64,000 nucleotides of DNA from Microthyrium microscopicum (GCA_010405405.1 MU004233.1:1501122-1565121), one strand, 5' to 3'. Numbered from the stretch's first letter, positions 6,915 to 52,663 are shown. Numbers and translations: made by a program. The notes: generated by a model not told the origin, from the sequence alone.

Positions 6915-7387
6915 GTTTGACGACAAAGAGTCTTCTCTCTGGAAGCTCTGTAAAATGTATGGAGGGGTGGGGACACAAGAGAGAGAAAACGGTTCCAGCA
7001 AGAGTCAAGACATTGAAAGGTGGAGGAGCAATGAAGGCATTGGCAGATTGACGCGATTTCATTGGCGCTTGCTGCCGCAGAGGCTGGAGCTCCCACGCTG
7101 CAAGGCGGGAGCAACCAGCCAATCGTAGCTTCTCTTCTTGGCACGTTCTCTGATCTGAACAGGGAAGGTGAGCACACGACTTGTTGCCTTTTTCATCTTC
7201 TATCGCGATCGTTTCTCTAAACAGCTTCATCATACAACATAGAAAAATTGTCTTGAAATGTCTAATCAGTATTTTAGCAACTATGGTACATTTACACATC
7301 CTTTTCCCAACATAGTAAACTCCACACTCGACTCCATGCCGGACTCCCAACCGCAAATGGGCTACTGATTATAACAAGAGAGAAGAT

Positions 7388-10479: not shown

Positions 10480-12456
10480 CTATTTCCTTCCTGCCCCCCA
10501 ATGCCGGCTCTGGCTAGAAACAATTTTACCTTGAGTCGCAGACGTTCCCATTGCTGGGTCAAAGCTGCCCTGTTGCTGAGACTGTTCATACACCTCTGGA
10601 CGCTGACCGTCCATTGAACGCCTGAAAAGACCTGTTCTAGAGCGAGACCTCTCACGGCCTGACCGCTTGGAGCGACCCTGTCGCGCTCTGTCGGATTCCT
10701 CCTGTGGTAGTTGTGCAGGAGAGCTACGACCTCGCGGCTGGAGATCCGCAACCTGTCGCTGATGAGCGAGATGCGTAACAGAGAGTGACTGATCTGATAT
10801 ACTGACCATATTCAACTGAGGGGATACCAAACTTTGTTGTTGAATCTGAGGCTGTTGAGGAGCTAAGTATATCATAACCGTCCCTTTGACGATCAACTGT
10901 GCAGCTTTCAAGTAGTCATCGCCAGCCGACGTCCCACGTTTATAGAGCCACGGCCGAATGACGAACGCAACGATAGCAGTCGCTGGATGTTGCGCTCCAT
11001 CTACAGATTCCATCGTCGTAGGGTTGAAGTATAGTTTAGTGTGTCTCATGGAATCCGCAATTAGACAATACTGTGCTCGCTGCTTCTTCATTTCCGCATC
11101 AAAGTTTATTGCGTGGGCGAAGATTTCTCGAAGGTCGGGCTCCATTGTTGACCATTGGTCACTTTCGCTGTATCGCCCGAGCCACTTGACTTGTGTCATT
11201 ACTTGAGTTATGTACGCGGACTGTTCGTGCTGGCTTATTGTTCTTTCTTGGACAAGGCCGGTGGTTACTGCGCGCCACGAGTGAAAGTATCCAAGATCTG
11301 CTTCTGTTTTATCCTTGTATTGAGCTAGACATACGAGTCAGAATTGAATTGTCGAGTAGCACGTATATGAACCTACTTGGATCTAGACTTCTTTGCAGCT
11401 CTATAACTGGTTTCTGTAGGCGACCAGCCCAGACGTTTCCTTTATCACTGAAGACTGTGTTTAACAGAACTGACCACATGTATGCTTCTACAACAAATGG
11501 GCGACGAGATGGATTTCGGAAAGCAAATTTGGCAAAATCCTCGCTGAAAGTCAAACGGTAGATATTTTCTTTGCTGTTCGCGGTACTTGATCGTAAAGAA
11601 GATGGAAGAGCATGAGACCGCGCTTCTCCATTGAAGAACTGGCCAGCCCAATTCTTTACTCGATAATTCAATTGACCAAGGCCATTCTTGAAGAAATCGT
11701 CGTCTCTATTGAAACTTTTTTCGTTCTTCATTGAGTTCAGCTCCATTGCCGCATTTTTGTTCTGCTCTTGGAGTTCTTGATTCTCTTGTCTTAGATCCTC
11801 TATCTGATAAGTCAATGCTTCTATATCTCGGTACATTTCTTCCTTGGACCAGTTGCGAAAATCCTCAGGTAATGGTATGTGCGGCGGTCTCATTGTACAT
11901 TCTGCAAAAGATGCTTCGTGGTGGCTAATTTGCAGACTGGAGGAAGTTTGGCTGCTGCTTGTATTGAATGTAGCGGCGCGCTGAATTGGTGGTCTTGAAG
12001 TTTGAGCATAACCGTCGGAAGTGTTCTTAGCTGGAGGAGGAGGAGGGGCTTGATTGGCATCGTAAGAGTTTAATATTGCGTTATAATCGTTCTCATCATG
12101 GATGTGATCTGCTTCTCGGTTCGTTAAAATAGCACTTCGTGGTCTGCTGCTAACGGCTTTCCGACCACTGTATCTCGTTGGAGTCGGGCTCATATGAGTC
12201 GTGCCACTTCTTTGCTTCGGTCTAGCTTCCATGGCATCCAGCTCTTCTGATTCATCGGTGAACAGAAATGATTCCTTCCTCGTTCCCTGGTCACTCTCGT
12301 TGAGCGCTTGGTCACTGGGTGCCAATGATATATCTCCAACAATCTCTGCCGTAGTTTTGACCCTACTTGGGCTTTTCTGTAACTTGCCCGCTATTAACTG
12401 ACTTGGTATTGAGGATGATATACTTGACAATGACATTTTTCAATTAAGGTTGCCAT
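10480..12456 (-). CDS. Uncharacterised coiled-coil protein with a GrpE/Mieap-like C-terminal domain
   Basis: ORFs 11309-12436 and 10480-11199 are joined by intron 11376-11325 (GTAGGT..CTGAC..TAG), giving ..LDP|TQYKDK..FHSWRAVT..MTQVKW. Disordered N-terminus, heptad coiled coil (IEALTYQIEDLRQENQELQEQNKN), then FNPTTMESV..IVAFVIRPWLYKRG..LIVKGTVMI. Start is either 12456 (with a short intron) or 12436. Confidence 0.75.
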
Positions 12457-12665
12457 GTAGCAGGTACTGTTTGTTGATGAGAGCAAGTTAGACCACCAAA
12501 TGACTGCAAAGCCTACTTCTAGTGTATAGAGTTGACCTTGTCCTTGAAATAATTTCTTTTCAATGACAGAGGCCTCAGATTGCATTTCAGCTTGGCTCTC
12601 AGGTATCTGGGCACAGCTGTCACATCCCAAAGGGGCGAAATGCATCATTAGCGCATCTTCACAGC

Positions 12666-12680
12666 CTCAGCCTGATGAAC
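12666..12680 (+). promoter_or_regulatory. Shared cis-element CTCAGCCTGATGAAC (copy 1, upstream of the GrpE-like gene)
   Basis: Exact 15-bp reverse complement at 14314-14328 and a 13/15 copy at 14703-14717. Core palindrome TCAG-C-CTGA. Confidence 0.6.
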
Positions 12681-13142
12681 TTTTTGATTTCTCTCAGCCT
12701 AACGATAAGACGATGTCTTCCGGCTGAGGTTCTAGACCCTGGAACATAATCACTAAACCTGGCGGGATTGGCTGCTAGATTGACCTGCGAAAAATGCATG
12801 GCGTAGCAATATTCTTGTGGCAGTGCCTTGGTACAAGGAGGGAAAAAGAGGAAACTGACATGATTTCCTGTCAGATGGCATAAGGGCCTTCAGACGAGGA
12901 TAATCTATGCTTTCATGGAAAGCATAGCATCTGTCGATTAGTAGCGTTAATGGCAGCCATCGCAGTTGTTGAGAGTACGCCATTTGTTTTGCCATTCAGT
13001 TGTCTGTTCAAATACCAGCGACTAAAGGCTCATCTGGCTCGACTTGAGCTGCAGGTAGGATTAGCATGCTAAATCTGGAGAAGAAAAGAACCGAATCTGA
13101 GCTCAAAGGGTTTAAATAACGCTCAAGACAGGAACGATTGCT

Positions 13143-14170
13143 TCATTGCATTTGTATCAACCCAATCACAATATTTGCTGTAATAGAAGCTACCGACACG
13201 AAGATCCCTAACGCATCTTTCCAGCCGAACTTGCGTTTGACTTCAGCAATTTTTTCATCAGTAGAATTCTTTATTTTTTTGCCCAATTTCTCACGACGAC
13301 GAACCTTGGTTTGCTTCTCCTTCGCCTTCTGTTGCTTCTCCTCCCACAACAACTTTTCTGTATCCCAGTCCTCTGTTTGTTGCGCTCTATATATCCGTTC
13401 CTGTACCTCCATTTGCTCATCGTGTATTCTTTGAACTTCGGCGTCCAACTCAGGTGTAATGAGTCTGCCGGCCGTCGTTTCATCCAGTCTCAGGCCTTGC
13501 TCGTGAATGTCTCGTTGAATTCTCAGCACTATTTGCTCTTTGTGGTAGAGCTCATATATAATGCCCTGAGCTGTACTGGGCTCTTCTCCATTGAATTCTG
13601 CAATAGAGGCACCCATTTCTTCCATTTCGCTCCAGTATTTGTCTCTCATTTCTTGAAATCTGTTACGAGCCTCTCCGTAATCCTTTTCTCTTACCCGGTC
13701 CCACATTGTAGTGACCAATACTATATTGCCAAACGCTTCCTCACCACACAACTTCTTGAACATCTCAAAGTATCTCCGCGAATGGCCCTTCCATCTCACC
13801 TCGACGATTGGAGTAAGGAATATGATCCCTTTCAAAGGTACGCCAGAGGCGTATTGCCAGCTCAAGTATGTAGCGATCTCGTTGAGTATCTCGTCATCTT
13901 CGCGGTGGGAATCGTCAAAGCCCGGTGTGTCTACGATGGCTATCGAAGTCTCGTCATTGAGCTCAGCCAAGACCATCTCGCATTTTGATGTGCCTATTGT
14001 CCAGGTTAAATACTTCGTATTGAAGAACTTTACATCTCACACTCACAGCTATCGACTCCGCTAGATTCTTTCACTTCCCCAGATTCGATAAGCTTATTGA
14101 TGAAGTAGCTCTTGCCGGAACCTGTCTCCCCCATCACAAGAATGACACCTTCGACATTCCTGACGGACAT
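13143..14170 (-). CDS. TRAFAC-class P-loop GTPase (AIG1/septin/50S-binding-GTPase-like) with coiled coil and C-terminal hydrophobic tail
   Basis: Exon 1 14170-14047 encodes MSVRNVEGVILVMGETGSGKSYFIN (G1). Intron 14046-13994. G2 SCT, G3 DTPGFDD, G4-like TTMWD, then a coiled coil and the tail ALGIFVSVASITANIVIGLI. Confidence 0.9.
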
Positions 14171-14313
14171 TGTATGCTAAGGAGATGTGGAACTGATTCG
14201 TCGCAAATTATCTCGGTAATCTCTATGCAGTATTTGGGATGATAAGCTTTGTGGGCTTCACTTACCTGACGCTCTTAGATTATGGTGTGATGATCAAGGA
14301 CGCCTCGTTCTCG

Positions 14314-14328
14314 GTTCATCAGGCTGAG
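14314..14328 (-). promoter_or_regulatory. Shared cis-element CTCAGCCTGATGAAC (copy 2, GTPase/Hsp70 divergent promoter)
   Basis: Plus strand GTTCATCAGGCTGAG is the exact reverse complement of 12666-12680. Confidence 0.6.
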
Positions 14329-14702
14329 AAATACGCTCTTGTGATTGGCCGAGCTGAGCCCCTATCAACAGATTGCTGCATAATCACAATGCACTGCTCC
14401 GCTTCCAGCCCGAAATCTTGACCAGTCAGTTGTGACATGTTGACAGGAGCCGACCTGAGCTGAACGGTGGAGCAAATGCTTACTCGCTGTTCTCTCACTT
14501 TGCTGATGAATCCCTCGCTCCATTCACAGGCTCCTAGCTAGACTGCGACCTCTTCAGCCACGATGGCGGAAATGTTTGAATAGTGGTAGCTGGATATATC
14601 TGCTTTGATGGGTCACATCGTTATATTCATTAGTCCGCTGCTCCAGGCTAAAGACACCTGTTGGAGCACTTTCCAAATCACTTCGCTTCTCCCACTTACA
14701 GC

Positions 14703-14717
14703 ATCAGCCTGATCAAC
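14703..14717 (+). promoter_or_regulatory. Shared cis-element ATCAGCCTGATCAAC (copy 3, ~100 bp upstream of the Hsp70 ATG)
   Basis: 13/15 match to copies 1 and 2. Confidence 0.55.
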
Positions 14718-14814
14718 CCTTTTCTACCATATCCATACTAAATTTCTGTTCAATACTCCAGGCTTGATACGAACTCTCACTGGAAGCATTGAATCGTTTC
14801 AATCCTACACGATC

Positions 14815-17437
14815 ATGGAAGAAAATGATTTCACAAGGCAATATATGGGTCGGCCTGTCTTGCCCGGGCGTCCATATTCTCCAGCCTACTCAGACAGACA
14901 TGCGCCTTTGTCTCCGAGATCATCGACTGCCTCGCCTAGATCAAGAATGTCCATGTCGACAATTTCATCCTCCAACAGCAACGACGCCTGCTGGTTTATT
15001 GGTATAGATTTTGGCACCACGTACGTTTCTCCGTTCCTGTCAGCTGCTGCGAGAGATAGTTAGCATATTCTCAAGCAGATCAATACCTATCAACTGCTCC
15101 CTAGCTCTACAAGATTCTCGTCCCCTCCGATTACTACAAGAATTGCATACTCTATAGAGAACGCATCATCAGTTTCTCGACTTTATGAGAGGTTCTTATC
15201 ACACTGTATGGCTCCCATGGCATTCCATGGCGCCCCCAGCATGTCTTGTAATGGTTTGATATGCGCTTTCTCTTGCACCAGAAGCGAGAAATCGTATCCA
15301 ATTTGGTCAGATTTCTATCACAACCTCCATATTCTCAAAACAAGTTGCTATTCCTTTGTATTGTTGAATGTGGTTCAAGCAACGTGTTAATGACCAATCA
15401 TATACTGAATCTTCCCCCAGATACTCTGGTGTAGCTTGGGCCTGGTCCGGTGACCCAGACAACATCCGTCTCGTCCAAAACTGGCCTACCAACGTTCCTC
15501 GAGCTCGTGATAACGCCAAAGCTCCTACCAAGATCGTCTACTTTGGCAACGAGCCCGGCGCTTGGGGCTATGAAGTTACTGATGGTGACTCTGCCGACAG
15601 TGTGGAGTGGTTCAAGCTGCTATTGCTAAAGGATGAAGACATCCCCAGCGACTACAAAGCCTCACCCTATCTAGCGCGTGCGCGACGGAAGCTTGATCGC
15701 CTACGTAAGACGCCAGAGCAAGTGATTGCAGACTACTTGAAGAAACTGTGGGGGCATACTATCAGCACGCTAAAGAGGGAGAGGGGGTCGGCCGCCGTGG
15801 ATGGGCTGCCATTCAGGGTTGTGATCACGGTGCCGGCAATTTGGCAGCCTTATGCCAACGAGAAGATGAAAAAGGCGGCGAAGGATGCTGGGATACTGGA
15901 CCGTCGTGCTTGTGGACCCACGACGTTGGAGCTTGTTCCCGAGCCGGAAGCTGCGGCGCTTTCGACGTTGTCGGAGTATCGCCAAATATTCGCGGTATGT
16001 GCCTAATGTTCAGTATGCAGATAACACCGATACTCATTAGAATGTAGCTAAACGATGTGTTCATTGTATGTGACTGCGGAGGCGGAACTGTGGTGAGTAC
16101 CGCGCAGCTCGAGTAAATGGGTAGTCTTGCAAGACTAATTCATTCTTTTAGGACATTATTACCTATAAAATCACTTCTCTGAACCCGCTCAAATTTGAGG
16201 AGTGCGTAAAAGGAAAAGGTAAAATTCTTGGCTGGAGACGACTACACTGCAGGTGCTGACCTGTACCTCTAGGCAAACTTTGTGGAGCAATATTCGTAGA
16301 TGAGGCCTTTGAGCGTCTAATAAGAACACGACTTGGAACCAAATGGGACAAGATAAGCGCCAGCGGGAAGCAAAGAATGATGGAACAGGACTGGGAAAAT
16401 GGGATAAAGCGACTTTTCAGTAGTTTGCCATCCTCAAAGACAACTTATACCGTTGAGCTACCCCCAGAGGCGTTAAGTGGCGGGCTGTTCGGCAAGAACC
16501 TCAACAATAAGAAGGTCAAAAACCAGCCAATCTCCAATGGGCGGCTACAGCTGGACAGAGGATTCATCAAAAATCTCTTCTTGCAGTCGTCCATCAATCA
16601 CATCAGCAGTCTTGTTGCAGAGCAGATCCGAATGGTTCAAGAAAAATTGGGGACAAAACCAAAGGCGAGTACCTTGAACACTACAACTTTGAAGCCATAA
16701 TTAATGTGTAATAGGGGCTCATTCTTGTTGGCGGCTACGGAGCATGCAACTACGTGTACGAAATACTCAAAGCCGAGAATGAGCACAAAGGCATCCAAGT
16801 TCTGCAGCCTAGCAACCAAGGACCTTGGGCCGCAATCTGTAGAGGGGCCGCAATCCGAGCTCGAGAAAACGGCATTGGCATTGGGACGCCTCAAAGTATG
16901 ATCACCTCCCGGATTGCTAGATATCATTATGGCACAGCCGCGAACCACATCTTCGACGAGCGAAAACACAACATTCGAGATAGATACCACTGCGAAGTTG
17001 AGAACAAATGGAAAGCTCGTGACCAAATGCACTGGTATCTAAAAATGGCAAGCAGCGATCTTCCTTGAAAAATACTTCAATGGTTGCTAATACTTGTCTA
17101 GAACTCTAACATCCAAACTCAACAGCCCGTTAAAGTCCAATACTACCGCCACATGCTCCATCCCGAGCCGACGATCGCGATGGACATTTATCAATGCGAA
17201 TTGGAACCAGCCCCAAGCAGCAAGGTTGACAGTGTTAGAAAGCTATGTTCCATTACATGCAATCTCAGTATAGACTTCAATTCTTTACAGAAGTATCAGA
17301 GTCCGGATGGGCATATGTACTACGTCCTCCAGTTTGAAGTAGAGATGATCTGTCGGGGTGGAAACTCTGTCGAATTCTCCATTTTGGTCAACAATGTCCG
17401 ACAAGGAAGGCAGAATGTCCAAGTTGACTTTATGTAA
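14815..17437 (+). CDS. Atypical Hsp70 (HSPA12-like actin-fold ATPase), multi-exon
   Basis: IGIDFGT|TYSG spans the 400-nt intron 15021-15420. Also VEWFKLLL, VITVPAIW, EPEAAAL, CDCGGGTV|DI, LCGAIFVD, ILVGGYG, WAAICRGA, SRIAR.HYG. No canonical DnaK substrate-binding domain or EEVD. Confidence 0.9.
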
Positions 17438-17451
17438 TGTCAATAGTAAGA

Positions 17452-19116
17452 TCAAGCTATAATTTCATGCTTTTCCTCTCCGTTCCTCCATGCCTCCAAT
17501 CCCTTTGCTGCATCTTCCGGGCTGGTCTTATACTTGAGCAGATAACCTTGAATCTCTGCCGGAGTGAGCTTCCAAGAGGACACCACAGCCCCAAAACGCT
17601 CGGCCATGATTTGGAGTTCTTCTTCAGACTTTCCGTGATCGAACCGCCCCAGTCCGCTTCCGATCGCATCACGTCCTACGACAGGACCCTTCGATCGATC
17701 AGAGCCACCTAATAGGCTATCATCAACTGAGTGGCCCTTGATCCCACTCTTTTTGACTAGGATATCTGCTTCAACTGTTGAATAAATGGCTAAGAACAGT
17801 CCCTGGGCGACATCTTTATCTGCATGAGTAAAGCGAACTTTGAGATCCACCCTTCCCGGGCGTAATAAAGCTGTATCCAGCTTTTCGATATGATTTGTTG
17901 TCATGATGAGAATTTGACCTTCACTTGATGCGACGCCATCAATGATGTTCAAGAGGCCGCTGAGACTGATACCCTTGGTAGCGCTTGCCTTGTCTCGGTC
18001 TTCGACATCTTTCTCCATCAACCCGGTCTCACGCTTACCCGTCATGCCCGCCGAATCCACATCCTCGAGAAGAACAATGCATCGAGGAGGTAAATCGCGA
18101 AAGAGCGATGCAAGGCCATCCTCCGTCATATTCGAATTCAGACTGGTGACGTATATCCTGAGGTGCAGTACGCCAGCTAGAGCCACGCAAAGGGAAGTTT
18201 TGCCAGTGCCAGGAGGTCCGCAGAAGAGATAGCCCCTTCGATAAGGGATGCCGCGGTTGGAGTACCATCTTCTAGTCGATGGATGGAGATATTCTTCCAT
18301 ATCATGTAAAACCATATTCTTCTGGTCTTCGTCTAGCACCACTGTTGAAAGAGGACGTCGAGGTCTGGATGCGCATTTTTCCCATTCAACACTATCGGAA
18401 GCACCAGGATGAGGTCTGTGGCTCCGATAGATGGCCGTCCTGTTGCCCTCTCGCTCCAAATAGGTGATTTGAGCCTCTTGGACGAGCTTCTTTATGATCC
18501 GCGGCTTTGTGCCAAAGCATGAAAGCAGGATCTTTTCTCGGCGTTGCTCACCAGGGAGACGATTCTCCTCGCATCGTGTGAAGGCGATCCAGTAGCCTCG
18601 GTAGCGGAAATGTTTTGTTCCAGCGGCGGGTGTATAGCGAATCGCCTTCATCCTGTCCCAGTTTCGATATGTTTTTGAAAGACCATTGAAAGTGGACTCC
18701 TCTGAATCGTCTAGCTCTTTATCAAAGTCAAAGTCTGACCTAGCTTGGTGGTAAACAAGACTGCTATTGGTTTTCGTACCAATTACAAATTGCGCAGCTT
18801 CTGTGGATAAGGCTTGCTTTGAAATCCAGTACATGAGGTAGTTGTAGACTTCATCGGTAGAACGAATTTCAGCAGTACATGTTACACATGACTTGAGGAG
18901 TTGAAATGGGCCGTCTATGCCAAAGGTCACCCCGTAGGCCAAGATAATGACAGCGAAGATTCCAAAATATGGTAAAGTGCTGGCGTTGAGGTATTCTGAA
19001 GACAAAGATGTGAATAAAGATAGCCCAGGTATGAGATTTGTAAGAATCGACATCAGCGCTGCCGAATTTGCTGCGTTAGGCGCACCAAATCCATTGTGAG
19101 ATGTTGTATTATGCAT
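17452..19116 (-). CDS. BCS1-like AAA+ ATPase
   Basis: N-terminal TM and BCS1_N-like region. RPRRPLSTVVLD, WYSNRGIPYRRGYLFCGPPGTGKTS (Walker A), IVLLEDVD (Walker B), SLSGLLNIIDG, MTTNH, LDTALLRPGRVD, TPAEIQGYLL. Confidence 0.92.
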   Translation of the reverse strand: MHNTTSHNGFGAPNAANSAALMSILTNLIPGLSLFTSLSSEYLNASTLPYFGIFAVIILAYGVTFGIDGPFQLLKSCVTCTAEIRSTDEVYNYLMYWISKQALSTEAAQFVIGTKTNSSLVYHQARSDFDFDKELDDSEESTFNGLSKTYRNWDRMKAIRYTPAAGTKHFRYRGYWIAFTRCEENRLPGEQRREKILLSCFGTKPRIIKKLVQEAQITYLEREGNRTAIYRSHRPHPGASDSVEWEKCASRPRRPLSTVVLDEDQKNMVLHDMEEYLHPSTRRWYSNRGIPYRRGYLFCGPPGTGKTSLCVALAGVLHLRIYVTSLNSNMTEDGLASLFRDLPPRCIVLLEDVDSAGMTGKRETGLMEKDVEDRDKASATKGISLSGLLNIIDGVASSEGQILIMTTNHIEKLDTALLRPGRVDLKVRFTHADKDVAQGLFLAIYSTVEADILVKKSGIKGHSVDDSLLGGSDRSKGPVVGRDAIGSGLGRFDHGKSEEELQIMAERFGAVVSSWKLTPAEIQGYLLKYKTSPEDAAKGLEAWRNGEEKHEIIA

Positions 19117-20096
19117 TGCTTTCTACTCTGGAAAAGCCACTGAGATAGTAGCTAAGAGCATGTCAAGTTTGGTTTGCGAATTGCCCTGCTTGATCAACAT
19201 TCAACCTTTATAATGAGAAGTACGATGGGAAGGATTCCGGAAGGATTTCAGCCCTATTCTACAAGCATCAGTGTTACCCCCACGGTAGTTTTATTTTAGA
19301 ACCAGGTATATGGTTGGAAAAGATGTTGATTCGTTCACCATGTTGTTGAAAGAATAGAGTATAGAATGGCAATAGCTCAATTTCCTTGCAGCCCATATCA
19401 ACTCTAAAGTAGCGACGTCAGTAGGATGTGAATTTGTTTCGGGAACCATGCAACTGAGCACATTCGCACCCAATCTCACCCAATCATACCCAATCGTACA
19501 AAAGCTCGGCAGTATATGGGAAGAGCATACTATGTACGCAGGAATAGGAAGCGTTTAGGCATGTAACAGCTTCAAAATCCTTAGAGCGAGTGATGATCAT
19601 TCTGTTAGGTTTTCAGAGACTATACTGAATCATCTGTACATGCGCACTGGTACAAGGTCGTTAGCAGTCATCCTCTGTTTCAGCATAGGTCAATCCTTGA
19701 AATCCTCGCATAAACCTAAAAAGAATCCCTCTCAGCCTCATGGCTTAGCCTCATACCGTAGAACTGAGGATTGTATCCTAAGGATCTAGAGAAAGAACAA
19801 CAGGATCACATATGATCTAACGAAAAATATAAAAATCCTACTAGACTAAAGAGCTGAGAATAGTTCTCATCCTAGGTTGCAAATTGAAACAACTCTGGAT
19901 TCTTCATTATGGAGAATTGATCCTGCCATCAAGCCCACATAATGATATTCATGAGATCTCGGTATATAAAGCAGTGATGTTCTCTCAAGTTTTCAATCTC
20001 ATCAACAAACCAGAACACTATTTCAATCTTACATTCCTATTCAACAACCAGCAACAACCCACCTATCCCAAACAATCCCCCAAACAATCAACAATC

Positions 20097-20524
20097 ATGA
20101 AGCACTTCAATGTTCTTTTCCTTGCTGCACTTAGCTTGCTCAGCGGTGTCAACGGACGTCTTCAAACCGCTCAAGGCAATGCTTTAGTTGAGCGCTCAGC
20201 TGAGGTGTTGGCCTCATCAGACGTGTTGGCAGCAAAACCGCCTCCAAAAGTCAAGTGCAACCGTCGCAGAGACGTTAATGGCCTGATGAAGAGGAACGAC
20301 CGTACGCCATCACTAAGAACGAAATGTCCTAAAACTGACCTTTTACTAACTTCTTGGCAGGAGGTGGGTGGAACCCAAACAACATCGAATATCACCCGGG
20401 CGACATTGTCACTGGCCATGATGGAGTCAGATACTCCTGCAGAGTGCAACACCACTCCACGGAGCTCACCAAGCCCGACAATCACACGGACTACTCCTTT
20501 GGTTTTTGGGCAGTTTGCGCATAA
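20097..20524 (+). CDS. Small secreted protein with a single CBM5/12 (ChtBD3-type) chitin-binding module
   Basis: Exon 1 20097-20301 encodes MKHFNVLFLAALSLLSGVNG (signal) plus a propeptide with RRR/KR. Intron 20302-20360 is GTACGC..TACTAAC..CAG. Exon 2 encodes RGGWNPNNIEYHPGDIVTGHDGVRYSCRVQHHSTELTKPDNHTDYSFGFWAVCA*, matching the W..n..Y..GD.V...G..Y.C...H.S....P.....W pattern. TATATAAA at ~19963. Confidence 0.8.
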
Positions 20525-21176
20525 GATGCAAGCCCACAACCATTTCACAGGGTAGATTCTTCGAGGATCCCTAGTGGCCAGTCCTTACCTTCTCCTAACT
20601 TTGCATCATTCGATAGAAAAAAAACAGAGGAAAAAGTTCGAAATATAGAAGGCTGGGAGTTGTGATATTTGGAATTAGATTGTAGGTTTTAGATAGAAAA
20701 TTTCAGTTCAGCCTTTCGGCTAGATTTTTATGATTTTATTACTTATCTCAATTAACCGGATGAATTGTCTAAGTCTTGGTGGAAAGTTCAAGAGACTGAT
20801 GAGACTCTGTTCCTGAGTACCCTGACGCCAAACATGAATTGACATACACAAGAGTTGAGGAAGGAAAACAAACACAAATAACTGACACAAGAGGGAAAGT
20901 ATTATCTTAAAGCGTGTCTCTCTCTTGAATCAAGCAAAGATATATGCTATGGGAAGCATGGCTTGTTTCCCACCACGGTGACAATGAAACTCAATGGAAT
21001 ACACCAGCCAATATCCAGCAAAACACTCTCAACCAAGACCATGAAACTCTTCCAAAAAAAAATCAAAACGCCATCAAACAACCGAAGATAAACTCTTTCA
21101 ATTCCAAAAACCACAAAAAACTCAGATATCATCCAGTGACACCAACCAGAATCGAACCGCGCTCCTTCACGATGGC

Positions 21177-21414
21177 AAAAACTTGAGCTCCCAATCGCCC
21201 ACCCAACGGAGTAGACAATTGACAGCTCAAGCCAAACCAGACTAACTGAGTTTTGATTTCTTGACACAATTCATTTTAACGTTCCATGTATGGGTTTAAG
21301 TGACCACCCTAGGAACAACCAATACGATGGTGGTATTGGCCCAATGCGGATAAGCTTGTAAGGTATTGAGAAGCCAAACTTATTCCCCACTGGGCCATCT
21401 GCTTGATTAGTATT
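21177..21414 (-). ncRNA. Putative Pol III-transcribed structured ncRNA (pri-milRNA-like)
   Basis: On the minus strand: TATATATT 21445-21438, A box TGGCCCAGTGG 21397-21387, four hairpins (the two long ones need G-U pairs, which fixes the strand), T5 at 21181-21177, B box GGTTCGATTC 21158-21149 and T6 at 21120-21115. Confidence 0.6.
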
Positions 21415-21925
21415 GGGAGATTATTTCGGGGATTTTGAATATATAGAGCATTGCTCGCTTTTCACTTCGGTTCCGTTTGTACTCTGGTTTTACCAGAACA
21501 GAACGAGAGTTCATATAATCAGGAGAAATAAAAAGATTTATTAATATTATGTGTGTGAGAGAATTGTATTTTATTTTGGTTTTGTAACAGAACTTTAGAT
21601 GTTTGGATTTCCTACACTGTCAAAGGCCGACCAAAATGTATCATTCCCTCTGACTTGGCATGCGGGCGACATTGCCATTACATACCTAGGTAATTATTAC
21701 AATATTCTCCCGTCTTATGATATCAGTGAAGCTGAAGTCGCTGACACAATGTAGGATCAGATTATGTTTGTGATACTTGTTCAATTGTCTACAATGACAT
21801 GAAGCAGCCACTGAAAGTCTATAAAGTTCTGGTAGAGGACATCCCTCATACCTTTTATGAAGCACACACGACCCATCAATTAATGGTGCCAGCACGATTC
21901 AACATGCCACCGGGCCGCTACTTAT

Positions 21926-22920
21926 CTAATAAGTCGAGGTCATGACAGACAATCTACCTCCATCAACGACCTGCACCGATCCATTCAAATACCCACCACT
22001 CTGTCCAACCATATACAACAACGTCGCCGCAAACTCCTCCAGCCCACCCGGCCGATGCGCGGGAATCATATTCACCGGATGTTCCATCTTCAACCCCTCC
22101 GTCATCTCACTAGGAAACACTAACAAACACCATCAGCATATTCACAACTCTCTTCGGGTTTCTGGGGTCAGTGAGTATACTTACAGCCCGGACAAATAAC
22201 ATTCGACCGAATCCCATATGGCGCCAACATAGTCGCCAAACACTTGCCCAAATGTATCGCCCCCGCCTTACTACTCGCATAAGCCAAGCCCGCCGTCACA
22301 TATCTGTTGAAGCCCGCAATGGAGGCCACGCTAATAATCTGGCTAGTCCGTCGATCGCCTTTGGAGACACCGTCTTTTGGCTCATTGCGTGCGCGCACGG
22401 CGCCATTGGGCTCGGTTTTGCCAGAGACCCATCCACGACGGGAATTACCTGCGTCTAAAAGCGGTAAAAAGACGGCACTGACATTGGCGAGCGCAGTCAC
22501 GTTGATGGCCATACAACTCTCCCATTTCTCCGTCTGGCTTAGTAGGACATCTTGTAGTTCTTTGATGTTGGTGGCGTCGTGGGAGGCTTTGTGGTCGGGG
22601 CCGGTGATGCCGGCGTTGTTGATGAGGATGTCGATGAATCCTACGTCTTTCTCGATTTGGGCTGCTACTTTCTTGATGCTGTCCAAATCGCTCACGTCCG
22701 CAGCTAAACCGACGACGACATCTGGTGAGTTGGCGTTGATGTTGGCGGCAGCGTTTTCAATGACATTGGCGCGACGGCCGAGGATGTAGACTTTTTGGGC
22801 GCCGGATTGGGCGAGGGCGGTGGCCATTGTTAGACCGAGACCTGTGCCGCCGCCTGTGATGACGGCGACGAGACCTTTGGCGGAGAAAAGGGTGGCCGGG
22901 TTTATAGTGGGAGTTGCCAT
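21926..22920 (-). CDS. Short-chain dehydrogenase/reductase (classical SDR)
   Basis: AVITGGGTGLG, ILINNAG, catalytic YASSK, IRSNVICPG|LFPSEMT across intron 22184-22120, VDGG. Confidence 0.93.
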
Positions 22921-25547
22921 GTTTGTCTATTTCCTGGCTCTTTAACTTTGTTCTATTTGTGGGGTTATATGTTTTTAGAGAATGGAGGAGGAATTTGGAC
23001 GTTGCTTGAGATATCAAAGATGGAAAGTGCGAGTGACTCTGAGACTCTGTGACGAGTAGTGTCACGTCATTGTTTTATATCCGAGATGGAAATGTGCCTA
23101 TTCGCAGCGAGTGAGATATTCAAATATGATGTATTGAGTATTAATTATACATGACTTGGGTGTGTACGGATCTAGTAGATCAGCCAAGTATAAAAATGAA
23201 TGAGCTTCTCCAGCGAAAATTGTGGTCGAATTCAGATACCGATGAGTGCCAGTGATCATAATTTTACGCAATCGACTAAAAGATTAGAGACACATTTTTC
23301 CCCATTAACCTTCAAGAAAAGTATCGTATCAATCAATCATTAAGATTTGACCATACTCTTCCGTGCAATGAAAATCAAACTTGAATATTCCTCAATGTTT
23401 TGCCAAAATAGGGGTATTTTGAGAGTAATTGTAGGCGAACCACTTCCAGGCAGAAAACCGCAGAACCCACGTTGCAGTTGCAGAATACACACACCACCAC
23501 AAAACCACAAAAAACACAAATACTGCATCCCAGACGCAGGGAAACCACTGCTATAAATTTTTTTACCCTGAAGCTAGCCTTGACGCTGCATATCCGCCAG
23601 TCTCCGCCCGTTGGCCCGCGAAAACGTTGCCGGCAGAACTGGCCACAACAACGGGATAGTGCCATTACACATTATTAGACATGTACCCCAAAATTCGCAT
23701 CTCGGCCAAAGACGGGAATTCACTGGAAACAAACCCAGAAACGTAGTTCCTTTTTGTATGGGGTGCAATTGAGCGGTGAGGAGTTGAAGTTGGGTGATGT
23801 CAACGAATGGACCTGGTTAATGGGACTTGCTTGGGAAGATAATAGCGCGCTTGGGAAGGTTTCAACGGCGACTATGGATTTTAGCTTTTGGGTGGTTAGC
23901 CCGTAAACGGGTTGTTTTTGCGCATCATTGGGGAGGCGAAATGGAAAGGTCTTTGGGGGGTTTGGGAGGGATGTTGGCCTCGGTTGTTGGCAACGTAGAG
24001 TATATGGCACGCGATCGAAGCAGGTTGTGAAAAATCCCAATGCTTCAGATGCGCTTTGTTGGAGAGTTATACCCGTCATGTGGGCTAAATCATGAGTAAT
24101 GATGTCGTCGTGAATGTTGAATAAGATCGGGCAAGTTGATGTTGATGAACGAAACGAGGCTCGCAAGTATGCTATTTCAGTTTGCCCATATCGGCGGCTT
24201 AGGATGATGCTGAAAAAAGACAAGTGAGGCAGCCGGACTGTTGGTGCAGGGCTGGAACTTTACAGGCGTGATCCAGGAACAATGACAGGAACCACCCAGT
24301 AAGGTGGAGTAAAAGAGGAGAAAATTGGTCAATAAGCTTGTAGGCGAGGCGGGGATTGCGTTGGATTTTCACTGGGATTGTTTGATGGGTATTGTCCGGC
24401 AAACGAGATGGAGAGTACTGTAAGAATTCATCAGCAACGGTTTCGGAATTGGATCGGGAATCGGGACAGTGAGATCAAGATGCAGCGACAAGGGCGAAGG
24501 AACAAGAGTGAATTGAGATATATATTTGCAGGAGTGCGATTGGTGTAGGGAGAGAAAAGACTGACGTGGCGGATCTGATGGCATCGTGGCTCAACTGTGC
24601 CAACTTGACGCTGGATTATGGGAGATGTTATTGGACAAGGAGAGAAGGACGGTGTGCGGTTTCACAGAACCATTGAAGTCAAGGTGTACTTTGTTTAACA
24701 CGACATTTGATGTAGGTTCAGGTTACTGTACTATTCCTGTTAGATTTGGCAGTACATTGATATGTATGTGTTGGCAGTATTAGGAGATTGAGATGTATAG
24801 AGACTCGTGACACTTTAACTGCAGGCGCGTCATTTTAATTTGAAGGATTAGAAGACGGCGAAGGAAGGCGAGGCGCAAGGCAGAAGCAAAGAAGGTGCAC
24901 ATGCAGTTGAAGGAAGGCGCAGATTCCAATCGTGGAAAGAGCATGGCACCGGCTGAGGCAGGCACAACCACCTACACTTGAGTCTTGAGCACAGCACACA
25001 CGTCAAGATCAGCAAGAGCAGCAAGTAGTTGAGAGCAGCAAGAGCAATCCGGCTTTCTGGGTCTTTCTTGCCTTGCCAACTATTCATGACTAAGCTCGCC
25101 CTACCCCGGTTCCGTCTGGTATGAGACCTACCCCTAGCCCGTTTCAGTTGCCACTAATCCTAATATTCTCTAACCCCAGCCACAGTACCAACATCGCCAA
25201 GCATACCATCATTAATTACAGCGCTGTACCCTTCATCGTCTCGGCTCTTGCTCCTGCACAACAACGCAGCATCGCATCTCCATTTCCTCTCTTCTTCTTC
25301 CACTCGCCCACAACACCACAATTCTAACCACTCCAACCAGTCCAACCACTGTCTCTAGTTTCACGCCTTTTACTGCACCTCGCCATATTATCTCTTCTGC
25401 CTTTTTCTAGTCCTGCATTATCCCATTCCCTCTACTTCTCCTTGCGTCTAGTTGCGCTGCTTGATGGCTAGGCCTCCACCAGATCCTCGATGACGACTGT
25501 CCAATACCACTATCAATACGCCTGTCTGTCCAATTTACCCTCTAAAA

Positions 25548-28500
25548 ATGTCCGACTCGTCTCCGTCACTAGCAAATGGCCATGCGCCTAACTCCAAAGA
25601 CCGTGAACAACCAGACATGCAATCTGCATCTGCTGCCATGGATGATCTCTCCACAAACCTATCCCACGCTTCGCCCAACATTTCTGCCAAACGCGACCTA
25701 AACTCTACTGCACCCCACAACTCTCGCGCCTCTGCAATCCCTAGAAACCAGTCCCAATCTGTCGGCCCGCCAAGTAGCATACACTCTCTCAACGTTTCCA
25801 GATCGCCCTCTCTTGCTGCCTCGCCCCGATCCTCCCGCGACTCTTCTCCTGCTGGTCCTCCCTTTCGTCATACCTCAAGTACTGGTGCCACCTCAACTGC
25901 CTCTAGAGGAATGAGGTCTAGGAAAAACAGTCATGATGTTAGCCCTCAGCGGCCCCCGTCTTCTTTCAATTCCACAGTTCCATCCGCTGCCGCCATACAA
26001 CGAGCCTTGTCGCAAACTGTCCCCCAACTTCAGCCATCAATCACATCCGATATCAACTCGAGGTTGCCAAGAGCGCAAAAGACAAACGGTATCTCGGAAG
26101 AAAGGGAGAGGCCATCGTGGCCTGTGTCTCCGCGCCTCAAATCGCCTCCTCCGGCAACAAGCTCGCGCCGAGGTTCGAAGAACTCTCCCCGTAAGGTTAC
26201 GGAAAATGGTTTGCCGGCACCAGACATTACCCTTCAACGAGCATCTCCTGATTTAGTACCAGTTGATGATGCGAGCGAGTCTTCAGATATGCCAACCCCA
26301 AAAGCTAGTAGCCGTGCCACTAGCAACAATGCGCCCGCTCTTGAGACTGTACAAGAGACTACTCCCCCAGTCACTACTGATACAGCTAGTATTCTAAGGT
26401 ATGATATGTTCATATTTCACTTATTCTCAAACGTCCGACTATACTCATCGGGCCTTTTATTGATTCTATTTTAGCTCTGAAGATAAGAAACCCGAATATT
26501 TCAGCTTTACATCAGACGAAGATCGGCCTTCTACAGCTCTTCATAGTCATGAAAACTCATTTACAGGGTCTAGTAAACACGATCCCATTCGAAGTAGTTC
26601 AAGAAGCAGAACTTCTGAAGAAACTGGTGATCTTGAGCTTACTCCAAAACCGAAACTGTCCAACAAGGACTCACTTAGTAAGCTTGATATGAAATCAGGA
26701 ACTGCGCCAGTCTCGAAAAACATGACGGTGGAGACTGAGACTATCAACTCTGGTCCTCAGGCCGCACTTGGTGCTCCAACCGATCGTTCTGGCTCTGGCC
26801 GAGTAGAGCCGGGTGGCACTCTCCGTGTCAAGGCAAGTAATGAAACCATCAGACCCAAGAAGGAACGGAAAAAGGCAACGAGGAAAGCACCCTCTGCCAA
26901 TGTCGCATCTTGTAGGTGTTCATCTATTTCTTCTACTAAATGTTTCTGCTTTAGTGATCCTCTTGCTGCCCAACCGGCACGCAATACTAGAATCATGACC
27001 TCTCCTTTGCCTCGCTCAAAGCAAGGCATCCAGCTTGTACCTTCAGGCCTGGATTCGGCATCGGCGAGTCAAACTTCGTCGACCAATGCCAGTCCAGTAC
27101 AATCGCGTTTTCTTCCACTGCGTGCGATTGAACGTATGTACAGCAGCACTAACCTTCGATCCCGTGAAGCATCAACTCGAGCAGACATATTTGAGGATCG
27201 AGTTAAGAATGCTATGGATGAGGCTACATCAGACGATTCTGATGAAACTTTCGTGTACGAGAGCAACCCTCCTGACCATGCACCCCGTCGAAGCCGTCAT
27301 CACTCACGAACCCCCAGTGGTGCGAGCCTCGCAAGTATGGCTGAACGCAGCGGCCTGCGTAGTATTGCCAATGTCTTTACCGATCAACAACGAACCGTCT
27401 CGAAAACCCGAAGCATGAAGTTTTCTAGCAACAACAGCAATTACGGAACTGCTGACGAGGAAACCGACAACCGAGATGGAACCATTCGAGCACGAGACCG
27501 CGCCCGTAGTAATGTCGCAAATCATGCCATCAGTGGACAGCGAACCGTCACCGGCCAATCCATCCCTATTGACGACGACAATAATATTGTTCCACTTTCA
27601 AAAACTAAATCACTCACGGCTGTTGGTGCACGTGGATCCTATGCAGCTCGACTCGCTGCTCAAAATCTTCGACACACTAGTACGATGAGGAAGAACGATG
27701 GGTACTCGTCGTTGGACATTGATGCCGAAGGGGCCGATGATGAAAGGACTCCATTGATGGGAACGGTTCGCACTCCTCGAAGCAACCGTACAGCACGACG
27801 ATATCGTTACATCGACAATCGACCGCCACCACAAGAGCATCGACGTAGTGTGCTTGCTCGACTGGCTGGAATCCTACTCATTCTGGTCACAGTTAGCCTG
27901 CTCGCATTTGGCGTTGTCTGCTTCCTCTTTGCCATGAGCAAACCTTTGATGGATGTACAGGTCCTCAGACTGGAGTCAATCATTGCCAGCGAACAAGAAA
28001 TCATGATGGATGTTGTCGTTCAGGCTGTCAACCCAAATCTGGTACCAATAACCGTCACGGATATGGATTTACATATTTTTGCGCTCAGCAAGTACGCTGG
28101 CTCTGAAAAATGGTGGAGAGAGCATGGGCAGCTTCCAGAACCGGATCCCAATCTTGACAAGAAGCGTAAGGATGCTTTAATTCAGAAGCGAGATGCCGTT
28201 CGACGACGCGAAAACATGGCGTTACCAGGAGACTTTGGCAACATCATCATCTCCGATCCTAAACCTCAAGACCCACCCTCTGGACAAACCATGCTTCTTG
28301 GAGCTGTCTTGAAACTGGACAACCCACTTGTCTTCGATGGCTCTTTCTGGAAACGTCAGCCACTTTATACTACTGGTTCAATACGGCTTTCGAAACCAGG
28401 AAACCACAGCGAAGCCGGCGGCACAGAAAGATGGGAACACGTTTTGAAACATGACTTTGAGCTCATAATTCGCGGTGTGCTCAAATACAACATACCGCTA

Positions 28501-28608
28501 GGAGGAAAGACTATCAGTGTTCCTATCAGCGGCAATAAATCAGTAGAGGGCAACGGCGGCGAGGAAGATGACGACGATGGGGATGAAGACGAATGGCATT
28601 TTCAGTGA
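25548..28608 (+). CDS. VAC7: Vacuolar segregation protein 7 (Fab1 regulator)
   Basis: Ser/Pro-rich N-terminus, intron 26399-26474, MTVETET, IFEDRVKNAMDEATSDDSDETFVYESNP, DDERTPL, a single TM, IASEQEIMMD..AVNPN, GGTERWE, FELIIRGVLKY. Confidence 0.88.
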
Positions 28609-29543
28609 ACGGCAGGTCGTCAAATCTTTCGCCGCTACCTTCACCAACCACAATTTTTCTTTTGTTTCAACGACTTAGACTTGTTTCCTCTTGCTCACGG
28701 CAAGCATGATGACAAAAATCAACCTTGTAAAACTTGCCATACAAGCAAAACACTTAACGACCTCTGGACAACGGCATTCACCACCTGCCCAGCACTTGCA
28801 AATTTTTCACGATATACCATGACCACCAAAAGATTACAAATACCCCCTGTTTGGCCCTCCAAAGCAATCAAGGAGCCGCGCCATGTGTTCAAGCATTGCA
28901 CCTGATCCTTTTTTCTGCCTGTTTGTATTACTGTTGGACAACTGTTTCGAGCATTTTGTAGGAGTGGCTTTTATTTGATACGTTGGTGAAGAGCATGGCA
29001 TCATCCGCTATTCTTAGCGATAAACGGACATTCATTTGCGTCTGTCTTTTCTTGGTGGCAGCGTTAAAGCAGGCAAGCGATTGTTCTTTTTATCATATAC
29101 ATATTACATTTGTAACGACTCTTTGCTCTTTTCCTTTGAACTATACATAGCCCAGTCCATTAATCTGTTGTCCTAGTGTCACTTGAGTGGTGCATACGCT
29201 CGAAACCGTCTCCTTGTGATTTACGATCTAACAACGAGCTGGTGAGTAGGGACGGCGAGACTTATTTGAGCAATTCCATCAAGAGGCTGGTGTTTTGGTG
29301 GTGAGCAATGGATTTTGGGATGGTGCCTTAACACGCAAAGTCAATGGACCGATTTATTCGGAAAATCAACTCTGAAAATCATTCGAGCAGTAATAGCTCA
29401 GTAGGAGATGTCGAATTGTAGAGAATAATAGGCAAAAAGCAAGGCCACCATATATACAATAGGCCAAAAGAATACCAAACCTATATCCCTCCCAGCAAAA
29501 CCCATCGCTTCCATGCAAAGCATACAAAATCCAATTCCTATCA

Positions 29544-30323
29544 TTAATCATCACCATTCTTCAAATCCACAAACCTCACCACAGCCGCCTCCCCCACCAT
29601 CCCATCCCTCTCACCCTTCTCCTCCCCATGTCCTTTACCGCTCAAAATCTCCCTCCCACCCGTAACACCAACCCGCCACCGCTCCTCCAGCAATGTCACC
29701 GGCCAGCCCACCCAAGCGCCAAGTATGCAAATAACCGTGACGAAATACTGCCAAAGAATTACGGGCAGCCAAATCGGGACCCAGAGAAATTTCAGCGTGT
29801 TGACGAGATCGTAAAGATCCGTCTGGCGCGAAATATAATAGCGTCGCCAATGCCGGTCCCATACAAGGTCTAGTTTGACGACTAATTCTACATCTGCTTT
29901 GTAGAAGGGGAGTGGGAAGATTCGGAATGTTTGTTTTATGTTTGCGTAGGCTGTTTTTGCTGTTCCTTGTTTTGCTAGTGCTTTTGTGTCTCTCGTATCC
30001 ACCCCATTGACCTGGCTCCCAATAGGACTCTGGTCTGTGGTAGAGAAAGTGTGGAGTGTGTTTGTTTGGCCATAGTCGACTGCGACGCTGACGACTACGA
30101 CATCAATGGTTGGTGATAGGATTTTATACCACCGGTAGACTTTCGAGATTGCCCAGCGGCTGTTGAGGCCGTTGCCGAGATCCCAGGAACCGGTGCGGAC
30201 GAAGGGGTGGGAGAAGGAGGCGCTGGGGAGGAAGTAGGTTTGTATGGCGGTGCTTTGGAGGTGCGGTGGTGTGCGGGTGAGGGTGTGGATTAGGAGGGGG
30301 ATTTGGGTTTCGGGGTCCTCCAT
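29544..30323 (-). CDS. Conserved fungal hypothetical protein (NTF2/SnoaL-like fold plus C-terminal TM)
   Basis: 259-aa ORF with MEDP..I..LIH.LT..PP..Q..AI..YF.P.ASF.HP, YRWYKILSP, YYISRQTDLY and a hydrophobic tail. Confidence 0.7.
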   Translation of the reverse strand: MEDPETQIPLLIHTLTRTPPHLQSTAIQTYFLPSASFSHPFVRTGSWDLGNGLNSRWAISKVYRWYKILSPTIDVVVVSVAVDYGQTNTLHTFSTTDQSPIGSQVNGVDTRDTKALAKQGTAKTAYANIKQTFRIFPLPFYKADVELVVKLDLVWDRHWRRYYISRQTDLYDLVNTLKFLWVPIWLPVILWQYFVTVICILGAWVGWPVTLLEERWRVGVTGGREILSGKGHGEEKGERDGMVGEAAVVRFVDLKNGDD

Positions 30324-31116
30324 TGTTGTTTAGTCGATTGGGGTTATCGGATGGTTGTGGATGTATGGTGGACGTGTTGTTGAGCTTGCTCTTTGATTTG
30401 GAGGAGTTGGTGAGTTGGCTGTGTCAGTGGGAGTTGGTAGGATTGGTTTGGTGGTAGAGATGTTGAGTTGGTATGGTGTAGAGAATCTGGTGATGCTGAA
30501 AGCGGATGGCAAGTCGTTGGATCGGATGCAGGCGAAAACGTGGGTGATGTCAGGGGTGTCTGTGCTTTGTCGCGTGGCTGGTCAGCGGAAAAGTCAATTC
30601 CAACTTCATCTCTTCGAATGATCATGACAATTCTTGCATTTAATTCAAATACTTTTGCGCAAAAGGATATAAAGACTGGAAAACTCCTTCATCTGGTTTT
30701 CGTTGTTGCAAGAAACTCAGAGATACAAGAATTGAGATCAATATGGCAGTACCTCTCTGTAAAGTTCGCAGTGATGCCAGAGACTCTATCATCACAACCT
30801 CACCGTTCTTGGGCAACACTGAACACTCATCCAGTCAAACAAGTGTCATATTTACTCATGACTCCATACGCCATGCATGTAACACCTTGTCCGTAATCTT
30901 CGTAAGCAAAAATTGGAGCCGTGGGCTGCCATTTCATTGCAGCACTTCAACGCAAGGTGTTGAGCACGACAAAAATAACAATTCAGATTCATATTGTGTT
31001 GATATTCCCTTATCTTTATAAATATGCTCCAATTATCATTCCCCAATTTCGTGGCACCAGCTTTCATTGTTTTTTCCTTACAAATCTTCGAGCCATAATT
31101 ACAACCTTTTTCAAAG

Positions 31117-51703: not shown

Positions 51704-52663
51704 AGTGGCTGAGTGGCGATAGCGGTCAAGTAGCGGAAGTAGTCGTGGAGAAAGATGTTGAATAGTACAGGGAAAAAGTAAGCCGGAGTTTATATATCTA
51801 AAACATAGTAAGTTATGACTATTTGAGGTAGAGTTTCGTCCAGAGGTTACGAATGTTCCAAACGCAAAAACAAGGCTGAAGCATAGAGCCTCACAGGCAA
51901 GACAAGTTATTACGCGGTACTCCTCTCCAAGGCGCTTACCGGATGGTCTTGCCGCTGATCAACTGCGGTCGATAATAGATCCTGACCAGGCGCATGAAAT
52001 CCCACAGGTGCCCCAGGTGGTCAAGCGTAAGGTCAACAACCACGCAATGCGTTATCTCCACTGCTCCCAATGCTTCGCTGTCGCTTTTTTGAAAGAGTTG
52101 ACACAGGGCGTCGTTCTCTCTGTAATGAGCTGACATATAAGTCAGGTAAATCGACTTTACCCAAGTTCATAGGCGATGTCTCATGTGGCAGAACAGGTAG
52201 CTAGTAATAGGCTGAATACTTCTGGACTGTCAATAATGACTTTGAAAGATAAGCAAAAGAAAACGCACCGCTTCCCCTGCGAGGTGAACCGCTGCTAGGT
52301 GGAAGTGATGTTTTGTAACTTCGTAAGGCAGAAATCAGGTTGTTCAAATACTTAAAGAGAACGAAGTCTTCCTCGGGCCCATTGCCAAGGCTATTATCTG
52401 ACTCAACTCCTAAAATACAAATGTTTAGAGCGATAGCTTAGTAGATATATTTGCTAACAAGCAAAGGATTGTGGGCAGGCGGCAGCAGGTAACAGCAACA
52501 GGTAGTTGGAGGTAGAGGCTACGTAAAGAGCAACTGGGGGCTATGAAGTCGTTGCTTCACGACGCGCCTTGATTGATGATCGACGTGTTCTTCTTCTAGA
52601 ATCTACGGTAATAGATTGCAAGACAATTGTCAGAGCATAATTCTAGAGTATCCGGTCTCAATT

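Follow-up and report, generated by a model that had tools for sequence, protein, structure and literature searches.

Two exceptionally stable minus-strand hairpins in a putative polymerase III-type unit of Microthyrium microscopicum

The intergenic spacer and its features

The stretch of DNA analysed (64 kb, hereafter the window) was like that of a filamentous fungus; contigs derived from RNA spliced out GT..AG introns of 50–76 nt. That these contigs, from a sequencing run of the same species, represent RNA follows from their splicing (GT..AG and CT..AC joints, 50–400 nt). The candidate locus is situated within a 1.4-kb spacer between an open reading frame of 152 aa and a short-chain dehydrogenase gene. 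The neighbouring features are:

17455–19116, minus strand: gene for a BCS1-type AAA ATPase
20097–20552, plus strand: 152-aa open reading frame with a signal-peptide-like start, for which Pfam returned no family
22920 down to about 21926, minus strand: gene for the short-chain dehydrogenase, with an intron at 22119–22185

The stop codon of the dehydrogenase lies approximately 480 nt upstream of the candidate locus, and both are on the minus strand. Among the sequencing runs searched, no RNA run was listed as containing the candidate stretch, and the run of the same species shared next to none of its sequence words. Over the part examined (positions 12000–31000), the RNA contigs spanned the genes around the locus, and for the dehydrogenase they reached as far as the bin 21510–22143. 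The bins covering 19608–21509 held no RNA contigs; the library type is not on record, and this gap counts neither for nor against expression. A coding function of the locus was rejected, because the open reading frames overlapping it were short (three starting with ATG, of 29, 61 and 80 aa, and a GTG-initiated frame of 106 aa) and those of 61 and 80 aa had no Pfam family. A cis target in the 3' UTR of the dehydrogenase gene was also rejected, as the 12-nt match between this UTR and the locus did not extend and was at the level expected by chance for a 2-kb region.

The following elements were located within the spacer:

21438–21445, minus strand: TATA-like element TATATATT, at about −31 to −24 of a predicted start near 21414
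21387–21397, minus strand: box A TGGCCCAGTGG, an exact match to TRGCNNAGTGG at about +18, forming the outer 5' arm of hairpin 1
21337–21397, minus strand: hairpin 1, 21 bp (10 bp, a G.G mismatch, 3 bp, a bulged A and 8 bp) with a 16-nt loop
21318–21340, minus strand: hairpin 2, 8 bp, an alternative fold that uses part of the 3' arm of hairpin 1
21281–21316, minus strand: hairpin 3, an outer 5-bp stem and a weak inner stem
21180–21233, minus strand: hairpin 4, 24 bp (10 bp, a G.G mismatch and 14 bp), 7 of them G.U, with a 4-nt loop
21177–21181, minus strand: T5, the first possible polymerase III terminator, the use of which would give an RNA of about 238 nt
21148–21158, minus strand: box B-like element GGTTCGATTCT, with one mismatch to GGTTCGANTCC, at the last consensus C
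21054–21120, minus strand: T-runs that could act as back-ups (T6 at 21120–21115, T5 at 21110–21106, T4 at 21068–21065 and T9 at 21062–21054)

An earlier note on this DNA, made from the sequence, had described a TATA element at 21445, a perfect A box at about +18, hairpin 1 with about 21 bp, hairpin 4 with 22–24 bp, many G-U pairs and a 3' end running into T5, and a B box followed by T6. All of these were recovered, the B box with its single mismatch.

Stability and strand of the hairpins

Folding energies were compared with those of 200 shuffles that preserved the dinucleotide composition. Hairpins 1 and 4 were exceptionally stable, and specifically so on the minus strand. Hairpin 1 folded with −33.0 kcal/mol (z −6.0) and hairpin 4 with −35.2 kcal/mol (z −8.8), and in neither case was any of the 200 shuffles as good. 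Their complements on the plus strand reached −21.2 kcal/mol (z −2.3) and −14.0 kcal/mol (z −3.6), respectively. Pair probabilities were approximately 1.0 for both hairpins, and the 3' arm of hairpin 4 continued directly into T5. The other two hairpins of the earlier note held up in part. Hairpin 2 does compete with hairpin 1 as had been proposed, and its stability was marginal (−8.7 kcal/mol, z −2.87, 3/200 shuffles as good) and equal on the plus strand (−8.4). In the full-length fold only 4 bp of it formed, with probabilities of 0.7–0.8. Hairpin 3 was found where it had been placed and was no more stable than expected by chance (−10 kcal/mol, z −0.82, 45/200 shuffles as good); in context, its outer stem had a probability of 0.97.

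The asymmetry between the strands extended to the whole 300-nt stretch, which folded with −108.1 kcal/mol on the minus strand (z −5.46, 0/200 shuffles as good) versus a z-score of −0.28 on the plus strand (83/200 shuffles as good). The version of 238 nt that ends at T5 had a z-score of −5.92, again unmatched by any of the 200 shuffles. Stability was also ranked across the window, with 64-nt windows taken at steps of 4 nt along each strand (31,970 folds) and the energy regressed on G+C content. Hairpin 4 came first with a z-score of −5.68, ahead of hairpin 1 with −5.15 and, in third place, a G+C-rich coding region with −4.27. An energy of −30 kcal/mol was reached by only 15 of the 31,970 windows, six of which corresponded to hairpins 1 and 4. 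The two best hairpins of the 64 kb are on the same strand, 160 nt apart. When windows of 300 nt were used (1,276 folds), the locus was third, outranked by the two strands of a single stretch with 68% G+C (32701–33000). This stretch is part of a Pro/Gln/Ala-rich open reading frame.

In the 238-nt fold, the 5' leader (21405–21397) paired with bases just before hairpin 4. The resulting helix closed a 5' domain consisting of hairpins 1 to 3 and left hairpin 4 and the U-tail free at the 3' end; it was only partly retained in the centroid. Hairpins 1 and 4 share their build, with 10 bp, then a G.G mismatch and then 11 to 14 paired positions. The common 10-bp base and mismatch could be a recognition or measuring feature; with two cases it is only a curiosity.

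Hairpins 1 and 4 together have 45 pairs, namely 19 G-C, 17 A-U, 9 G.U and 0 A.C. The sole defects of the stems were one G.G mismatch in each and one bulged A. In a decaying DNA palindrome, transitions are expected to yield G.U and A.C equally often per strand. Under such neutral decay, 9 G.U versus 0 A.C has a two-sided P of approximately 0.004 by our own calculation. Together with the energy gap between plus and minus strand, this argues that pairing was kept in a minus-strand RNA and speaks for selection on that RNA. The minus strand at the locus is rich in G+T (G+U in RNA), a composition that the shuffles keep. Repeat-induced point mutation (RIP) was rejected as the origin of the G.U pairs. 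Only one of the five inner U.G positions was in the TpA context that RIP leaves behind, and the hairpin arms are far shorter than the substrates of RIP.

Promoter-like elements and competing explanations

The TATA-like element (−31) and box A (+18) imply one common start near 21414. Measured from start to start, box A and box B are 239 nt apart, and box B sits 19 nt past T5. Neither box was enriched when considered singly: exact matches to box A numbered 2 in the window versus 0.79 expected, and matches to box B with up to one mismatch numbered 3 versus 3.94 expected. The box B at 21158–21148 was the only one in the window located downstream of a box A, and the other box A (51706, plus strand) was accompanied by neither a box B nor a TATA element. 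The composite was evaluated in 400 simulated first-order Markov windows of 64 kb each, scanned on both strands. A box A followed by a box B after 30–400 nt occurred in one of the 400 windows, and in none of them when a TATA hexamer 36–56 nt upstream of box A was added. As very many windows were read in the scan from which this locus came, a 1-in-400 composite will arise by chance somewhere. Box A is moreover part of the stem of hairpin 1, so that its sequence may be held by pairing and not by TFIIIC.

No run of four or more T was present between 21414 and 21182, an absence that is not significant (P = 0.30). After the T5 at the end of hairpin 4, four further T-runs follow within 130 nt. Such clusters (at least five runs of four or more T per 130 nt) were found in 12 of 6,387 windows on the minus strand, 4 of them at this locus and the others at a second one (60390–60151), and in 0 of 6,387 windows on the plus strand.

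These observations led us to propose, with a probability of roughly 0.4, that the locus is a minus-strand unit transcribed by polymerase III from an SNR6-like promoter, yielding a hairpin RNA of about 238 nt, possibly a precursor of small RNAs. In such a unit, TFIIIC would bind box A at +18 and the extragenic box B at +257, TFIIIB would assemble on the TATA element at −31, and polymerase III would start near position 21414. Transcription would terminate at T5 (21181–21177), or at T6 in the case of read-through, with the later runs as back-ups. In the product of about 238 nt, the 21-bp hairpin 1 would be the dominant part of the 5' domain, and the 3' end would consist of the 24-bp hairpin 4 and an oligo-U tail. 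What we observed are the sequence elements with their geometry and the exceptional stability of hairpins 1 and 4 on one strand; what we infer is where transcription starts and ends, which polymerase is involved, and whether the RNA is processed or has a target. The earlier note had proposed a structured RNA from a polymerase III gene. The structured-RNA part of that proposal is well supported, both by the window statistics and by the strand asymmetry, and the assignment to polymerase III is supported only by how the motifs are arranged. The locus is a real, statistically unusual structure in a coherent polymerase III-like frame and not yet a gene.

Processing into small RNAs in the manner of milRNAs would be the most likely fate of such a transcript, because the geometry of a 21–24-bp stem with a terminator-set 3' end is that of a short-hairpin RNA. 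The milRNA stem criterion is about 20 bp or more, and hairpins 1 and 4 have 21 and 24 bp. It is stem length alone that suggests the terms pri-milRNA-like and Dicer substrate, which should be read in this sense. According to the available part of PMC9757828, fewer than half of the published fungal loci pass basic expression standards, and structure alone is therefore insufficient. A more far-reaching version, which we consider improbable, is that of an undescribed fungal polymerase III gene with the rare SNR6-type promoter, unrelated to the curated families, encoding a 'tandem short-hairpin' RNA in which the 3' end of a Dicer-sized hairpin of 24 bp would be set by the terminator, so that small RNAs could be made without a Drosha-like step.

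Several other explanations were weighed. It is somewhat unlikely that the locus is a DNA feature without a functional RNA, either the remnant of a mobile element or related sequence (MITE, foldback element, tRNA-derived SINE or broken tRNA gene) or a set of protein-bound palindromes. Inverted-repeat elements typically have long and nearly perfect stems, and boxes A and B, a TATA element and T-runs are what would remain of a tRNA-type gene after decay. However, ARAGORN at default thresholds predicted no tRNA gene in the window, whether introns were allowed or not, which agrees with the lack of a cloverleaf reported before. Rfam at E values up to 10 likewise gave no tRNA match. With the threshold at 80%, ARAGORN made 5 weak calls in 1.7 kb; these, including one that overlapped box B, were taken as noise, and the T-arm of a presumed tRNA relic would, as we read the sequence, hold only 3 pairs. 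Boxes A and B of the head of a tRNA-derived SINE are roughly 30–60 bp apart. For tRNA genes, a typical distance of 50–60 bp is given in the available part of PMC9136082. The missing cloverleaf and the 239 nt between the boxes speak against a tRNA gene or tRNA-derived SINE.

With respect to a MITE, the inner part of hairpin 1 begins with CAGTG, like the ends of Tc1-type elements. It also loosely resembles the mimp repeat consensus, CAGTGGG.GCAA[TA]AA, as given in the available part of PMC6131394. Nevertheless, the mimp consensus had no match when up to 2 mismatches were allowed, the stem of hairpin 1 extends 5 bp outside CAGTG, and no TA duplication was present at hairpin 1. Inverted repeats in the flanks did not exceed the chance level (P = 0.17 in a shuffling test), with 6% of equally spaced segment pairs along the window scoring as high. 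A MITE of the mimp or Tc1-impala type was rejected on these grounds. Numerous genomic copies of a SINE or MITE had been named beforehand as evidence that would speak against a novel RNA; within the 64-kb window, no second copy of 20556–22168 was found. The 9 G.U versus 0 A.C pairs are also unexpected from neutral decay of a DNA element. A metagenome scan for the two outer arms of hairpin 1 with a gap between them yielded 8 loci, about the number expected by chance and none of them similar beyond the pattern itself. A full-text literature search with a 12-mer from hairpin 4 returned only two papers, both on human cells and unrelated.

A polymerase II transcript, an lncRNA or pri-milRNA-like RNA from the same TATA element, is unlikely in our view. 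Boxes A and B would then be coincidental, in keeping with the chance frequency of each, the T-runs would be read through, and hairpin 4 would be the tip of a longer, irregular hairpin of about 160 nt. A TATA element at −31 suits polymerase II equally. In a 310-nt fold, hairpin 4 was enclosed by two helices (21261–21246 with 21125–21106, and 21242–21236 with 21137–21131) with probabilities of 0.4–0.96, which persisted in the centroid of a 163-nt fold. Since these helices require read-through of both T5 and T6, polymerase II would fit them better. Binding of polymerase II at some milR loci of Neurospora is described in the available part of PMC3547838. However, pairing in the outer helices is mostly A/U-rich and involves oligo-U, the 12-nt inverted match on which they rest is 1 of 26 such pairs in 2 kb, and the z-score of the 163-nt fold (−5.95) is owed mostly to hairpin 4. 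The absence of the composite of box A, box B and TATA element from all simulated windows also stands against coincidental boxes.

Chance alone is quite unlikely; it would mean that a functionless, G+T-rich intergenic spacer happens to carry two hairpins of unusual quality along with some matches to motifs. Very many windows were scanned, a G+U-rich minus strand favours G.U pairing, and hairpins 2 and 3 and the single boxes were at chance level (hairpin 2 marginally). Nonetheless, no dinucleotide shuffle reached the energy of hairpin 1, hairpin 4, the 238-nt fold or the 300-nt fold, and the two best hairpins of the 31,970 windows lie side by side on one strand. The motif composite is rare too, and it is independent of the hairpin statistics.

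A known class of RNA (SRP, RNase P/MRP, snRNA or snoRNA) that has diverged beyond the Rfam models is very unlikely. A length of about 240–310 nt and polymerase III-type signals would fit genes of the SRP or RNase P type, and AAGUUUUUG after hairpin 4 is loosely like the consensus of an Sm site. However, Rfam 15 at gathering scores gave 0 matches in the whole 64-kb window, consistent with the novelty claimed in the earlier note. At E values up to 10, searches of 1.2 kb and of 371 nt returned only noise (snoZ162, RT-6, RsaH, MIR7533 and SOX2OT), the best of which was snoZ162 with 16.6 bits versus a gathering score of 45. The U6 motif ACAGAGA was absent from the locus, as had been stated before, and with no Rfam match to U6 either, a U6 snRNA was rejected. 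Comparison by eye with the CR-I/CR-V and SRP helix-8 consensus sequences did not reveal these motifs.

Comparison with known systems

To our knowledge, fungi have few polymerase III genes beyond those for tRNA, 5S, U6, SRP and RNase P RNA, and Neurospora is the only well-studied fungal case of small-RNA precursors made by polymerase III. The locus merits a check at the bench or in databases. It is ordinary if it turns out to be a repeat or a relic without transcription; if it is real, it is a hairpin-RNA locus of polymerase III whose promoter is of the SNR6 type. It would then represent a new class of RNA to be sought in the annotation of fungal genomes, as well as a natural template for the expression of hairpin RNA in filamentous fungi.

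The putative promoter is closest in layout to that of SNR6 of Saccharomyces cerevisiae: a TATA element lies upstream at about −30, box A is intragenic near +20, and box B follows a terminator made of a T-run. The available part of PMC9136082 describes SNR6 with the TATA element at −30, box A within the gene and box B 202 bp away past the terminator, the same arrangement that the earlier note had recognised here. The distance between the boxes, 202 bp in SNR6 and 239 bp at the candidate locus, is in both far above that of tRNA genes. Unlike SNR6, the RNA of the locus would not be U6, would be about twice as long and would be made of long hairpins; box B lies 19 nt past T5 here, and transcription by polymerase III is a prediction.

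Adenovirus VA RNA is a viral hairpin unit transcribed by polymerase III. The pre-miRNA genes of bovine leukemia virus (available parts of PMC12498455 and PMC5622367) are further units of this kind, and the tRNA-miRNA of MHV68 is named as one in the available part of PMC3547838. The reading proposed for the candidate locus shares the principle of such viral units, in which polymerase III with internal type-2 elements produces a hairpin, a T-run sets its 3' end, and a Dicer substrate arises without Drosha. The candidate locus differs in that the viral units are about 55–170 nt long, and their boxes A and B lie near each other within the RNA. In addition, the 5' end of hairpin 4 would lie inside a longer transcript and need a further cut, and the candidate locus is cellular, with fungal-type sequence.

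For Neurospora crassa, the available part of PMC3547838 reports that the major milRNAs are transcribed by polymerase III, as evidenced by an inhibitor, ChIP and promoter mutation. As these precursors are made by polymerase III, a small-RNA fate would also be the most natural one for the putative transcript described here. The loci milR-1 and milR-4 are like the candidate locus in being intergenic, in carrying a hairpin and in having TATA-like elements as well as stretches of poly-T (PMC3547838, available part). In the same part of that source, milR-1 has TATA-like elements and no predicted box A or box B, the main milRNA locus being without these boxes, and milR-4 is carried by a tRNA-Ala transcript, which RNase Z cleaves. 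In contrast, the candidate locus has boxes A and B and no tRNA, and it is likened to the Neurospora loci by layout and not by sequence. An SNR6-type promoter joined to terminator-defined hairpins in a cellular gene would, if confirmed, extend the Neurospora pathway.

Surroundings of hairpin 4

Hairpin 4 of the candidate RNA, the proposed minus-strand Pol III hairpin-RNA gene, is a 24-bp stem (21233-21180) that runs into the T run T5. Two possible extra helices in the minus-strand RNA would enclose it:

21246-21261 with 21106-21125, minus strand: possible extra helix
21236-21242 with 21131-21137, minus strand: possible extra helix

Both consist mostly of A/U pairs with oligo-U. Together with hairpin 4 they could form an irregular hairpin of approximately 160 nt, which would require read-through of the putative Pol III terminators T5 (21181-21177) and T6 (21120-21115).

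Twelve nucleotides of the hairpin 4 5' arm (21211-21222, in the sense of the minus-strand RNA) had a perfect complement at 21781-21792. This site falls within the 3' UTR of the mRNA for the adjacent dehydrogenase, approximately 135 nt past the stop codon. The complementarity did not extend beyond these 12 nt, and a match of this length is about what chance would provide in 2 kb.

An open reading frame is convergent with the candidate RNA:

20097-20552, plus strand: 152-aa ORF with a signal-peptide-like N-terminus

It matched no Pfam family, and no contigs from the same-species RNA run X1 covered it, a gap that counts neither for nor against expression.

Promoter- and terminator-like motifs elsewhere

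A second exact box A match was present in the window:

51706-51716, plus strand: TGGCTGAGTGG

It lacked an upstream TATA, had no box B at a distance of up to 400 nt, and is probably a chance occurrence. Apart from the candidate locus itself, the only minus-strand site in the window with at least five runs of four or more T per 130 nt was 60151-60390.

Other strong folds

The top 300-nt folds on both strands of the window fell in a stretch of 58-68% G+C at 31421-33313 (plus strand), especially 32300-33100. Since this stretch lies within an open frame of 630 aa with a high content of Pro, Gln and Ala, its fold signal probably stems from coding sequence of low complexity and not from an RNA element. 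The 64-nt scan (31,970 folds, both strands) ranked fourth a G+C-rich (64%) hairpin at 7057-7136, with −31 to −33 kcal/mol on the two strands.
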